Below are positions 48,999 through 59,800 of a stretch of 64,000 bases of DNA, in pieces. The notes under the pieces are model-generated. The model saw only the letters and a list, made by a program, of their open reading frames with translations, was not told where the DNA came from and ran no database searches. The stretch is from Eledone cirrhosa (Eukaryota): the NCBI GenBank assembly GCA_964016885.1, contig OZ024745.1, positions 71,300,001 through 71,364,000 on the forward strand. The letters are read 5' to 3'. The translations under genes were made by a program, and so were the position numbers. Every line of letters begins with the position of its first letter. The first letter of the stretch is position 1.

Positions 48999-49147
48999 GA
49001 AAACAGGGAGAAAGAGGCGATTATGAGGAAGAAAAAATTTTTTTTTTCCTTTCTTGTGTCTCTCTCTCTCTCTCTTTTTTCTGGGTTAGAAAATGATTAA
49101 AACGAAATGTTTTACTTTGTGTATATACATATAGGAAAATGTTCAAG

Positions 49148-49240
49148 ACCCCGACGGCAGACCTCAAGCCCTTTCGACGGCTATTTCTGGGCTAAATTAA
49201 ATATTTAGCAGGTAGAAAATAGCCGAACTTTTCAAGGGGT
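49148..49240 (-). ncRNA. Type I HHR, family C, variant core UUGAAAA (U3-A8)
   Basis: Minus strand reads ACCCC-TTGAAAA-gttcggctatttt...aaatagccgtc-GAAA-gggc...gccg-TC-GGGGT, with one stem III mismatch. Confidence 0.7.
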
Positions 49241-49444
49241 TATTCCATATATGGGCGTGCGGTAATCATGCATTTCTGAAGATTGTAGTTGTCAAAATGA
49301 TTAGTCAAAATTCCTTATAAATACAATTAAATCTTACATGGCGGTGGGTGGCTGAACTTGCGTGTAGAACAAGTACAGTCTTGAGAATCTTGTCAACTAC
49401 AATCTTCAGAAATACATGATTATCGCCCGCCCATATATGGAATT

Positions 49445-49539
49445 ACCCCTTGAAAAGTTCGGCTATTTACTACCACACTAAAAATCTAATTTAGTCCAGA
49501 AATAGCCGTCGAAACGGCTTGAGCTCTGCCGTCGGGGGT
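49445..49539 (+). ncRNA. Type I HHR, family C, variant core UUGAAAA (U3-A8)
   Basis: ACCCC-TTGAAAA(49,450-56)-stem II CGGCTATTT/AAATAGCCG-GAAA(49,511-14)-stem III CGGC/GCCG-TC-GGGG. GUC cleavage triplet. Confidence 0.8.
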
Positions 49540-49633
49540 CTTGAACATTTTCCTATTACCCACTCTACAACCCAAAACATTGAGTACTCTGGTGCATTAT
49601 GGTCCACCTGATTCCTTACCATACTTCCTTCGT

Positions 49634-49740
49634 TATATATATATATATATATATATATATATATATATATATATATATATATATATATATATATATATAT
49701 ATATATATATATATATATATATATATATATATATATATAT
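49634..49740. repeat. (TA)n microsatellite
   Basis: Direct. Confidence 0.95.
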
Positions 49741-49778
49741 AAAATATAACATCAGAAGATGGTTAAAGGAGTTCCATG

Positions 49779-49849
49779 TATTTTATTATGCGCATTTCAA
49801 AAACAAACATCATCATGCAATAATATTTGTGTTTTCATCAGATAAAACA
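49779..49849 (-). ncRNA. Minimal type I HHR, family A
   Basis: Reverse complement of 49,968-50,038. Confidence 0.8.
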
Positions 49850-49967
49850 GGAGAACAGGATATGAAGGCTAAAAAACACTTGTGGATAGTGCAGTTTTAA
49901 ATCAACATATGTTGATTTAAAACTGCACTATCCACAAGTGTTTTTTAGCCTTCATATCCTGTTCTCC

Positions 49968-55500: not shown

Positions 55501-55706
55501 CATGGAACTCCTTTAACCATCTTTTGATCTTATATATTATGTATACTCCAGTCCTACAAACTGTAGAGTGCTTCTTATCCGATATCTGCATTGCTTTATT
55601 GTACTACAATAAAACTCACCTCCTACATTAACTTGCTCCTTAACGGTTGAGCGCTTACTCTCATATTGGATACCTTCTGATGGTCTTTTACCTCTTCTTC
55701 TACAAC

Positions 55707-58093
55707 ATGGATTATTACAACATAACCAATTCAACTAAAGACATTCCTATACCTGGTAAATCTGAATTCACCAAACTTCTAATTGAAACAACTGACTCCT
55801 TCGTAATAAGACTTAGATGGATAGCCTATTTCTATGACCAGCGCCTAAAAGGGAACTTCTATACCAAAGAACATAACTTCCTCGATCATCTATTTAATTC
55901 TAGAAGAAATCCTCCTTCCAACAAAAATCTAGTGCAATTCGAGGAAGAGTTAACAAATATTATAAAAAATCTTAAATTCAAGAGATACCCTTACAAAGGA
56001 CAAGAGCACCTTGTAAATCTCAAGAACACAATTTCTAACCTAAATTCCTCAAAAAATGTTTTAGTCCACTCTGACAAAACCAATAACTTATATGGTATTT
56101 CCAAGGATAATTATAACAACCTTATCCTAAAGGAACTTAGGAAAAAGTATCGTAAAACCAACCATGAAAATGTAGAATACATAAACCTTGAAGCCTCTGA
56201 GATTATGTCAAAACTTGACATTGAAAAAAAGACCGAACCATTCCTCCCAAGAACTCCGAGGATAAATCTCAAGGATCACAAAAACAATTTTCGCACTGAA
56301 CTACCTGTTAGATTAATCGCCCCCTCTAAATCTGATCTGGGGGTTGTTAGTAAAGCCATCTTGGATAGAATTATCCCACAGGTTAGTTCTAATTGCTCTT
56401 CTTTGAACCTAAATTTATGGTTTGGTACTTCTGAAGTGATTGGCTGGTTCAACAAATTGGATAATAAAAACAAACTAAAATTTATTCAATTTGATATTGC
56501 CAGCTACTATTCCTCCATTTCGCCTTCACTTCTCAATAATGCTCTATCTTTCGCACTTAAATATTCTGACATCACCACAGATGAACTTCACATCATCCTC
56601 ACCGCACGTAAAACCATCCTAGAGTTCAACAACGAATATTGGACCAGAGCCGATACCTCTAACAATTTCGACATCACAATGGGAGCATCCGATTCATCCC
56701 AATTGACTGATTTAATTGGTATCTTTATTTTGAACTCTTTGAGTCGGAAAATTCCTCAACTTCGCGGTGGAATTTATCGTGACGATGGACTCTTTACTAT
56801 CTTAAATTGCAATATAGTTAACTTTAATATTATTAAGAACAATATACGTAATTTCTTTAACCAACATAACCTAAAAATTGAATTTGATAACAGTATCAAA
56901 CTAGCTAATTTCTTGGATGTATCTCTTAATCTTGACACTGGCCTATATTACCCTTACCATAAAAACAATGAGAACCTAAATTATGTTAACTTTAAATCTA
57001 ACCACCCTACCAATATCAAGAATGCTATAGTTAGTAATATTGGAAAAGGAATATCTAACATATCTTCTAATAAAAACATCTTTGATGCTAACGCCAATTA
57101 CTATAATAACGCACTTTCTAAAGCCGGCTATCCTGATAAAATCAAATTTAGCAAAGAAACAAATTCTAGAAAAACTTACAGTAGAATAATTAATCATGAT
57201 CATTCCAATAACTTTAATAAAAGACCTAGATACAAAAACATAATCTGGTATAATGCTCCTTTCTCCATCTCTATTAATAACAATATTCCTAAATTATTCT
57301 TTAGTGCCTTAAATAAATGCTTCCCTCCCTCACATATCTATAGTAAAATATTTAACAAACACACCATAAAATTTTCTTATTCTACATCCTCCAATATTTC
57401 CAACATTATCTCTAAACACGACAATAAAATACTAAATACTAAATCTCTTCCTTCCAACACTGAATTTCATAATAACAGTAATAGTACTCGCGACGTCATT
57501 GTAAACCCTAGGCTAATTTCTGTAAACCCAAATATAACGTCAAACACAACTTCGCTAAATGTTCATAATCCAACTCTAAATCAAGAAACTATTATTTCTA
57601 TCGCAAACAACTTCTCCAATCCAATTCCTTCTATAGATAACACTAGGTCACTCATTAATAATCTCTCTAATTGCAACTGCCCTATTAAAAATAAACGTCC
57701 TCTCAACAACCATTGTCTTGATAAAAACTTAATTTATGAATGTAAAGTTATAACTAGCACCAATTCCTTCACCTATTTTGGCTCCACTTCCACCTCTTTT
57801 AAAGCTCGTCTCTATAATCATCATTCATCTTTTAAATACAAACTTAAAAGAACCAACACGGCTCTCTCAGAACTCATATGGTCCTTGAAAGACAAAAACA
57901 TTAAATATACCATCTTTTGGAAGAAGGTTTCTTCTGCGTCTTGAACTGCTCTCTATCTAAAATCTGTAATCTCTGCCTAAATGAAAAATTTACCGTTATC
58001 TCTAATCTAGATTCTATAATAAATAGACGTACAGATTTGTTTTCTATCTGCTTGCATAAATTCCATAAGACTTTTCACAAAGTATACAGCTAA
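55707..58093 (+). pseudogene. PLE reverse transcriptase + GIY-YIG endonuclease, with one frameshift near the C-terminus
   Basis: ATG at 55,707. Motifs STKDIP..RLRW, SDKTNNLY, LKDHK, RLIAP, FDIASYY, MGASDS, YRDDG, NFLDVSL, SNHP, CNC..PL, LIYEC..YFGST. Stop at 57,942-44, but the -1 frame continues KICNLCLNEK...INRRTDLFSICLH to TAA at 58,091-93. Confidence 0.92.
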
Positions 58094-58916
58094 TATTCAA
58101 TTCTTTATCAATTTAGAATCTTTTCTCAAAGGCACATATACATACACTTCTTTTAAAATATACCCATCTTCCTACCTTACTTCAAAGGGTATTATACACT
58201 CTATAATACTTGTTTACTCATTACCCTCACTCTATCTTCACCTTGTAAAATCCTTCGTAACATATACATTTGTTTTGACACCAGAGTATTCATCCTTAAT
58301 TTATTATTTTTTCTCCCCATCATCTAACTCATTCTTAATACATATTAACTCTTTCTTCGCACATATTATCAATTCCTTCAATATACAAACCTTAACTTCA
58401 CATTATTTTTCTCAAATCCTTCAATACACAAACCTTAATAATTTTTTCTCTTCGTTAATTTTCAAATTTCCATAATACTTGTAAACATACACACAATTTT
58501 TTTTTACGTTAGAATATTCGTCCGCAATCCATTATTCTTTTTTCTCTCTATCATCAAACTTTTTAATCTCTATACATATTAACTCCCTCTCCTTCTTCGT
58601 ACATATTTTTCCCTTCGTTAATTTTCAAATTCTTTTAATTTATACATTATCTTCCAACGGTTTTCAACCTCTCTATGTAAAACAATATATCTTTTCTCAG
58701 TTATAAAAACTATCTCTTTCTCTCTATCACCCATCTCTCTCTCTCCACCTTCACTCTCATCTCCTCCCCTTTTTTTCATCCTTTCCACCACCACCACCCC
58801 CTCTCTAAATAAAATATTTTTCCCAATATCACACATCAATCTAAAATTACTTTTCATATGTTGATTTAAAACTGCACTATCCACAAGTGTTTTTTAGCCT
58901 TCATATCATGTCCTCC

Positions 58917-58990
58917 TGTTTTATCTGATGAAAACACAAATATTATTATTGCATGATGATGTTTGTTTTTGAAATGCGCATAATAAAATA
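58917..58990 (+). ncRNA. Minimal type I HHR, family A (3' pLTR)
   Basis: CTGATGA at 58,925-31; stem II ACAAATATTATTAT/ATGATGATGTTTGT with G-U pairs; GAAA at 58,971-74; palindromic TGCGCA; predicted cleavage after 58,982. Confidence 0.8.
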
Positions 58991-59046
58991 CATGGAACTC
59001 CTTTAACCATCTTTTGATCTTATATATATATATATATATATATATA

Positions 59047-59560
59047 GCGGCGATTAATTAGTTTAGCGAGGTTTTTTATATGAAATCGTGTGTCGAAACA
59101 GATATTGTTATACTTGGGGAGGGTCATATTTGCGTAATATTGCCAGAATTAATAACAGAACACACTCACTGTTTGGTTGGTTTTCGCTTCTCGCTGTCTT
59201 TTATATCTGCGATCTAACTTACTCGGTCCTCAATGTTGCCATGAGACTGAATAAAAAAATGGCGTAGACATACAACACAACAGGAGGAAAAAAGAAAAAA
59301 TATAACACCACTGACGATGTTGCAGATGTGCAACGAAAGATTTATGTAAATTATGTAAACTATATATATGTGTTTGTGTCTATATTGTATCTGTATTGTT
59401 TTTGACCGTCGGTCAGTCAATGGCAACATTGAGGACCGAGTAAGTTAGATCGCAGATATAAAAGACAGCAAGAAGCGAAAACCAACCAAACAGTGAGTGT
59501 GTTCTGTTATTAATTCTGGCAATATTACGCAAATATGACCCTCCCCAAGTATAACAATAT
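59047..59560. mobile_element. ORF-less inverted-repeat insertion, family D
   Basis: Arms ~59,102-59,249 and ~59,413-59,560 are near-perfect inverted repeats. The left arm has ~55 extra bp. (TA)n on both sides, with an HHR-like core in the spacer. Confidence 0.75.
59304..59374 (+). ncRNA. Hammerhead-like motif, family D (stem I degenerate)
   Basis: CTGACGA-tGTTGCA gatg TGCAAC-GAAA-stem III TTTATGTA/TATGTAAA-C-TA. Stem I (AACACCA/TGTGTT) pairs only if an extra TATATA is looped out. Confidence 0.5.
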
Positions 59561-59608
59561 ATATATATATATATATATATATATATATATATATATATAT
59601 ATATATAT

Positions 59609-59800
59609 ATAGGAACAAGTAGGACCCCGACGGCTGAGCTCAAGCCGTTTCGACGGCTAATTCTGAGTCCAGAATTAGCCGACGAAACGGCTTGAGCTCA
59701 GCCGTCGGGGTCCTACTCGTTCCTATTACCCACTCTACTACCCTAAGTATTGAGTACTTTGGTGCGTTATGGTCCATCTGGTTCCTTACCACAATTCCTT
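59609..59800. mobile_element. Short palindromic insertion, family C
   Basis: Fold-back centred at ~59,668, inside HHR stem II. Homologous to 49,495-49,633. Long (TA)n on both sides. Confidence 0.85.

Follow-up and report, generated by a model that had tools for sequence, protein, structure and literature searches.

Paired short and long ends and a candidate twin-hairpin signal in Penelope-like elements of Eledone cirrhosa

Penelope-like elements (PLEs) are described as carrying an inverted, 5'-truncated copy at their 5' end together with an extension, the 'tail', that is often present at one end only (PMC3846280, PMC8557442). How the tail and the inverted ends come about is, according to published accounts, still an open question (PMC3846280, PMC8557442, PMC11167929). 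This analysis concerns a stretch of 64,000 nucleotides (nt), hereafter the window, from Eledone cirrhosa (GenBank assembly GCA_964016885.1, contig OZ024745.1, positions 71,300,001 to 71,364,000, forward strand), in which four families of endonuclease-bearing (EN+) PLEs, designated A to D, have left insertions built of two outward-facing arms. One arm stops at a short end and the other at a long end, a pairing that is nearly strict among the loci sampled genome-wide, and in A, B and C a predicted bulged hairpin lies just beyond both ends.

Poseidon_Ac, an anole PLE of another clade, has been followed in vitro, where both strands of AT-rich DNA are nicked and extended. Two internal start sites of its reverse transcriptase (RT) bound the tail, RNA 3' of them is required, and a dimer is predicted (PMC11167929). 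In its text (an RNA fold is shown in Fig. S2C), that account names one AC-rich stem-loop rather than a duplicated element, and the parts of it drawn on here contain no pairing rule and no model of the inverted arm. The Hydra clade is marked by RW- and DKT motifs, a CxCX5C linker, CxxC/CxH, a C-terminal GIY-YIG endonuclease without CCHH, hammerheads and (TA)n targets (PMC8557442). Families A, B and C have the same C-terminal GIY-YIG, motifs, hammerheads and (TA)n targets, whereas their units, at ~3.5 kb in A and ~4.6 kb in B, depart from the tendency of the clade to stay <3 kb.

The one-sided tail, the inverted pseudo-long terminal repeat (pseudo-LTR), (TA)n targeting, two start sites and two-strand extension are already published in the sources cited, and the elements belong to a known class; what is added here is a strict pairing rule and a candidate RNA signal. 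Neither was found in a literature search that took in few subscription papers and was directed at twin priming in PLEs, at the structure of a PLE and at bulged hairpins among Hydra elements. In L1 twin priming, two target-strand primers yield a head-to-head inversion with a variable second start and non-overlapping arms. The inversion is alike here, but neither start varies, and overlap between the arms is usual.

Pairing of short and long ends

Each of six insertions in the window has one short end (S) and one long end (L) on outward-facing arms, and both ends then run into (TA)n. A first, sequence-only reading had described these six insertions, and comparison of sequence and breakpoints confirms their positions and their ends. 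The reading was also right that the TA tract at 49,131 is merely a remnant, and that L belongs, in B, to the arm with the open reading frame (ORF) and, in the A copy that carries an ORF, to the inverted one. The tail between S and L measures ~90-100 nt in A, ~100 in B, ~78 in C and ~56 in D.

To extend the comparison, 3.0 Gb of genome was searched with queries taken from the part common to both end types. From this search 137 regions around matches were fetched, and a query with the C ORF added ten loci, giving 147 stretches beyond the window (numbered with the prefix L where single loci are named). The best 40 candidates were scored per search, so the sample leans to young copies. The recurrence of 3' breakpoints noted by the first reading is borne out, and the bimodal distribution that it had named as support is seen as two clusters per family in A, B and C, while D has one short and two long positions. 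The two long ends of D lie ~13-15 nt apart, and a related family has a 74-nt piece in common with D, beside the D tail.

The 147 stretches and the window together comprise 252 blocks: 124 with two classifiable ends, 121 with one and 7 with none. In ten of the 124 the parts had to be connected manually, as a nested insert or a divergent middle separated them. The automatic count of two-ended blocks gave 121 S+L, 2 L+L and 1 S+S (binomial p 1.5e-32 against 50%), an excess of short-and-long pairs of the kind that the first reading had named as support. On manual correction one L+L block turned out to belong to the 5' portion of an S+L insertion of full length, and a block scored as S+L from a doubtful 7-nt match was dropped. 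After these corrections 121 of 123 two-armed insertions are S+L, the exceptions being one S+S (L215) and one L+L (L279), both in family C. Pairing this close to strict rules out an independent choice of the two sites. The 3' end of full-length A copies, predicted beforehand from the inverted arm, was correct in 8/8.

The main arm may end in either S or L. By comparison, the PLE tail is described in published accounts as optional and 30-40 bp long, and in words; here it spans 55-100 nt, has been counted, follows a near-strict S+L rule, and the main arm may carry either the short or the long end. A pure TA run of at least 8 nt lies beside 113/121 short and 116/121 long arms, and its length does not differ between the two sides (p 0.10). 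A search for empty target sites, meant to measure target duplication or TA growth, yielded chance adjacencies only.

A predicted bulged hairpin beyond both ends

The same motif is found just 3' of both the S and the L sites in A, B and C, where full-length copies read through the long site. Its lower stem, RCUC/GAGY, is 4 bp long, 2 nt bulge out on the 3' side, and the upper stem is short and varies in sequence. Of 109 ends counted in the three families, with overlapping loci not merged, 108 sit 3-9 nt before the hairpin. The first reading had proposed that AT microhomology defines the start sites. Such microhomology is clear at the S sites and amounts to 1-4 nt at the L sites, where that of B has a single base in common with (TA)n; in A, B and C the distance to the hairpin is the better predictor of both start sites.

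In 1.39 Mb of loci the motif was matched 247 times, whereas three shuffles gave 17-22 matches. When the tail matches of A, B and C are removed, 65 matches are left; in 45 of them a TA tract begins no more than 130 nt further 3', and in many an inverted partner stops shortly before the hairpin. At the four variable positions, where pairing was not demanded, 69, 55, 58 and 47 of 77 stem types pair, with many different sequences. The predicted hairpin thus covaries across many further families of this genome. These 77 types are the unselected test; a tally of pairs at the base pair (G-C 14, A-U 12) was discarded as circular because its sequences had mostly been picked for pairing.

Three further families, G, H and I, were collected with search patterns that required the first half of the hairpin, leaving the second half as a free test. 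In family I both hairpins are present, the second complete, in 11/12 read-through loci. By eye, the hairpin or a variant of it can also be recognised in published Hydra consensus sequences of sea cucumber, coral and sea louse (PMC8557442 File S7). Hydra-1_Ajap starts with two perfect hairpins ~60 nt apart, Hydra-2_Ajap and Hydra-2_Amil have one hairpin in the tail, Hydra-1_Crog and Hydra-1_Amil carry variants, and Hydra-1_Obim is ambiguous. The twin hairpin is visible in these consensuses and goes unmentioned in the portions of the accompanying text drawn on here.

Proposed two-strand priming and its alternatives

The shapes of the arms bear on how the two ends arise. In 56/118 insertions the S arm reaches further 5' and the tail is on the L arm alone, so that neither arm contains the other; 17 long arms consist of the tail only, beside a tail-less main arm. 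The DNA footprints make it rather probable, in our judgement, that an RT-endonuclease pair nicks both (TA)n strands and primes one complementary DNA (cDNA) per nick, guided by the twin hairpins. The hairpin would fold in the sense RNA and anchor an RT in the manner of a ruler. The two hairpins of one junction between pseudo-LTR and 5' untranslated region (UTR) would hold one protomer each, and one short and one long start would be forced. Both cDNAs would then extend 5'-ward for independent distances, and end joining would link them head to head through overlaps of 0-6 nt. Most of the junctions observed are distinct, usually showing an overlap of 0-6 nt or a short insert; a few are found repeatedly.

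On a monomer RNA, a start at the upstream junction would limit the copy to the preceding 170-270 nt and give palindromes without an ORF. An ORF arm with a long end would require an RNA that is tandem or circular, since hairpin 2 is situated past that end; for the same reason stubs that end in TA lack hairpin 2 and would be dead ends. Read-through copies in tandem are present in the sample (L184, L209). In D, a different signal would do the work of the hairpins. The first reading had put forward two-strand priming at two RNA positions with head-to-head joining, a scheme whose core was already published. It is partly supported: the pairing, the eight correct predictions, the 56 arm shapes and the published in vitro data fit it, while its microhomology component does not seem to hold.

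Several observations weigh against guidance by twin hairpins. About half of the blocks (121/252) have just one classifiable end; among them are genuine one-armed copies, which are frequent in B, pieces interrupted by a later insert or by the edge of a locus, and fragments from a family resembling D. The second hairpin is mismatched in family H, a different stem follows the long end in family G, and no hairpin of the A/B/C type was found near the ends of D, though D obeys the S+L pairing. The predicted folding energy of the hairpin is small, -1 to -4 kcal/mol. The Poseidon_Ac enzyme used either start site on either strand in vitro (PMC11167929), so that a coupling of S and L is not shown for that element. 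The arms of the ORF-bearing A copy in the window differ at three subfamily sites, and 7/42 C and 1/14 D insertions differ between arms at two or more shared non-CpG sites, which suggests two templates in some events. Finally, the arms overlap in most insertions, and overlap needs one RNA stretch to be copied twice.

These differing alleles and overlapping arms also speak for an alternative in which the two strands are primed at the two fixed sites sequentially, on two RNAs or on one that is re-used. The first event would decide the second site, and the hairpins would mark the sites without simultaneous twin docking. Against this, arms diverge less within than between insertions in all four families (A 1.5 vs 5.3%; B 0.8 vs 1.2; C 5.6 vs 9.7; D 1.8 vs 3.1), which suggests one source. 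Rare variants are common to both arms in 26/90 insertions, and equal 5' ends of both arms are more frequent than chance (23 observed vs 6.1 expected). Such likeness would also fit a pair of RNAs that stem from the same source locus, or arms homogenised afterwards by gene conversion, and we regard sequential priming as unlikely while giving it more weight than any other alternative. A-to-G editing was sought in sampled insertions as a barcode of a single RNA molecule and was not seen (6/58 shared rare variants).

Much less probable is a second end made at the DNA level, with the endonuclease recognising the tail or hairpin in a cDNA intermediate and resolving it. Craig et al. 2021 call the tail most likely the result of EN-mediated resolution (PMC8557442), and tail-dependent cleavage by the D. 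virilis endonuclease is cited by Frangieh et al. (PMC11167929). The hairpin, however, lies 3' of each end and hence outside the copied cDNA of the short arm. Among recurring stem types G-U type pairs outnumber A-C (7 to 2), which mildly favours the sense strand, and both boundaries of the tail are RT start sites in vitro (PMC11167929).

Slightly weaker still is the proposal of Arkhipova et al. 2013 (PMC3846280) that one strand, by priming itself or by folding back to be copied, gives rise to the inverted arm. Palindromic junctions are the published argument for it, and the excess of equal 5' ends given above is an excess of symmetric junctions. In the 56 insertions in which each arm holds sequence absent from its partner, neither can be a fold-back copy of the other, and the 17 tail-only long arms beside a tail-less main arm point the same way. 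Fold-back is excluded as the sole route and explains at most a subset.

That the palindromes are artefacts of assembly or of library fold-back can hardly be credited: arms are unequal and divergent in sequence, flanks differ, some insertions carry later nested inserts, and raw reads of two other samples show family A ends and joints. These reads, from restriction-site-associated DNA (RAD) libraries with duplicates, were examined for family A over a stretch outside the window's own junction. They contain loose ends running into TA at the A S site (243 and 213 reads) and also at the A L site, as well as several opposite-strand joints.

The elements of the window and the possible meaning of a candidate twin signal

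Motifs assign A, B and C to the Hydra type and D to the Neptune/Nematis type, so the first reading, which had called the four families unrelated, was mistaken on this point. The pseudo-LTR DNA of A-D does not align between families, and it is the PLE clade motifs that relate them. Pseudo-LTRs occur in both direct and inverted orientation and one end carries a tail, the arrangement by which PLEs are recognised. Read by eye, the translated frames of A (766 amino acids, aa) and B (5'-truncated, 531 aa) jointly show RW-, DKT, CxCX5C and CxxC/CxH motifs. The RWK-like and DKT motifs are read from these two translations, and B has the full set of CxCX5C linker, CxxC and CxH around E and N, and no CCHH. 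The linker is also found in a sister copy of C. In the window A copy the third Cys of the linker is lost, which a sister copy keeps, and the frame stops early in the endonuclease region; sister copies have open frames of 821 aa. Dozens of A-like copies with such frames have identical scores (G000), which suggests a very recent burst.

The C and D ORFs were read from sister copies, C being of the Hydra type. The D translation (L279, by eye) agrees with Neptune or Nematis in its CX4CxxC linker and its CCHH endonuclease. Relatives of the D protein carry PF00078 and PF01541, the nearest named one being from Octopus vulgaris (62% identity). Pfam gave a weak GIY-YIG match for B (E 0.002, falling short of its cut-off) and none for A, D or the ORF at L282. 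The latter belongs to a further Hydra-type family (L282 3,610-5,967, minus strand), in which an intact 785-aa frame, 41% identical to A, lies between direct pseudo-LTRs; a variant hairpin stands ~6 nt past its genomic end.

The first reading had called the families ribozyme-bearing, and a type I hammerhead core is conserved in nearly all arms of A-D, with exceptions among single copies: C copy 2 has the 3' half only, and D in the window has a hammerhead on one arm only. The hammerheads are predicted type I motifs. At gathering thresholds Rfam gave no matches, and below threshold it recognised B alone; fold z-scores are weak (-0.04 to -1.7). In family C a U3-A8 core variant is kept in 43-46 of ~46 arms. 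That core (window 49,450-49,456) reads UUGAAAA in nearly all copies, a compensatory U3-A8 for C3-G8.

The insertions follow one another along the window. Family C copy 1 has an S-ended arm at 49,131-49,372 (minus strand) and an L-ended arm at 49,388-49,633 (plus), both placed by sequence and breakpoint comparison. Its predicted type I hammerhead with the U3-A8 variant lies at 49,445-49,540 (plus; fold and core conservation), and its bulged hairpin, just 3' of the S site and mutated in the upper stem, at 49,562-49,585 (plus; sequence). An origin of these two arms from two subfamilies, suggested by 81% identity, was rejected, as that value came from unequal arm lengths. The ORF-less palindrome of family A occupies 49,745-50,163 on both strands, its short arm (49,745-49,908, minus) and long arm (49,909-50,163, plus) being joined at a 6-nt self-complementary word; the sequence has a bulged hairpin 3' of the S site at 50,081-50,105 (plus).

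Family B follows with an L-ended main arm at 50,593-54,075 (minus) that carries the 5'-truncated Hydra-type ORF. Its translation (52,482-54,077, minus) holds the end of the RT, the CxCX5C linker and the GIY-YIG endonuclease. The bulged hairpin 3' of the S site is seen in the sequence within the tail at 50,665-50,686 (minus). Rfam Hammerhead_1 matches at 50,739-50,783 (minus; 29.1 bits, E 0.0012, under the gathering score), and Rfam also finds the mirror copy at 54,368-54,412 (plus). The inverted S-ended arm spans 54,076-54,454 (plus; sequence and breakpoint comparison).

The ORF-bearing A copy starts with an inverted L-ended arm at 55,203-55,413 (minus), set apart from the direct copies by the three subfamily-diagnostic sites. 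The upstream direct pseudo-LTR and tail (55,414-55,628, plus) read through into the 5' UTR. Hairpin 1 (55,545-55,569, plus) lies 4-9 nt 3' of the S site and hairpin 2 (55,635-55,652, plus) 4-6 nt 3' of the L site, as judged from sequence and end-to-hairpin distances. The Hydra-type RT and GIY-YIG frame, 766 aa from stop to stop, extends over 55,644-57,944 (plus; motifs by eye). A downstream pseudo-LTR at 58,850-59,020 (plus; sequence and breakpoint comparison) has its S end running into (TA)n, and a minimal hammerhead is predicted in it at ~58,917-58,992 (plus; fold and core conservation).

Family D has an L-ended arm at 59,047-59,250 (minus) and an S-ended arm at 59,244-59,557 (plus), both from sequence and breakpoint comparison, the latter with the hammerhead core at 59,311-59,338 (plus; core conservation). 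Both arms of family C copy 2, short at 59,611-59,665 (minus) and long at 59,666-59,799 (plus), start inside the hammerhead; its hairpin is read from the sequence at 59,732-59,755. A seventh, degenerate two-armed insertion at 48,800-48,899 (both strands), recognised from the sequence and by-eye comparison with copies of family G, comprises a short arm with a hammerhead core (48,800-48,858, minus) and a long arm of tail only (~48,862-48,899, plus). Family G is very abundant.

The ORF-less copies are head-to-head stubs of ORF-bearing families. For this reason they were not assigned to the non-LTR retrozymes, which are described as tandem head-to-tail hammerhead units without an ORF. In A, 5' truncations are concentrated ~262 and ~176 nt upstream of the long end, and in C at 135-146 nt; the ~262-nt spot may mark the RNA 5' end, and the ~176-nt spot of A and that of C coincide with the loop of hammerhead stem II or adjoin it. 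In some long arms (L167, L189, L195, L201, L203, L211) an internal stretch is inverted or segments of the ORF are rearranged, which suggests extra priming or template switches inside the RNA.

The window also includes a ~45-kb satellite of 21-nt units (1-45,500) and a pyrimidine-rich tandem array that terminates in a short inverted piece (60,917-61,865). A short dispersed repeat, probably a short interspersed nuclear element (SINE), occurs at 46,987-47,198, 60,587-60,661 and 62,109-62,479 and is frequently nested within PLE arms at other loci.

For the Hydra clade as a whole, we put at about even the chances that the bulged hairpin is duplicated and conserved across corals, molluscs, echinoderms and crustaceans, that on one RNA it serves as the dock for both halves of an RT-endonuclease dimer, and that each start is thereby placed some six bases away. 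The twin hairpin is a specific candidate RNA signal; in vitro assays of an existing type would allow one to remove it, shift it or transplant it, and the dozens of family A copies with 821-aa open frames place the reagents at hand. Should its distance prove to set the start, the hairpin would also be a candidate handle for programming reverse transcription. PLEs are the closest retroelement relatives of telomerase, and a telomerase-related RT would then have a portable start signal. Two-strand priming from a twin anchor would, if true, account together for the tail and the inverted pseudo-LTR of PLEs and for the palindromes without an ORF.

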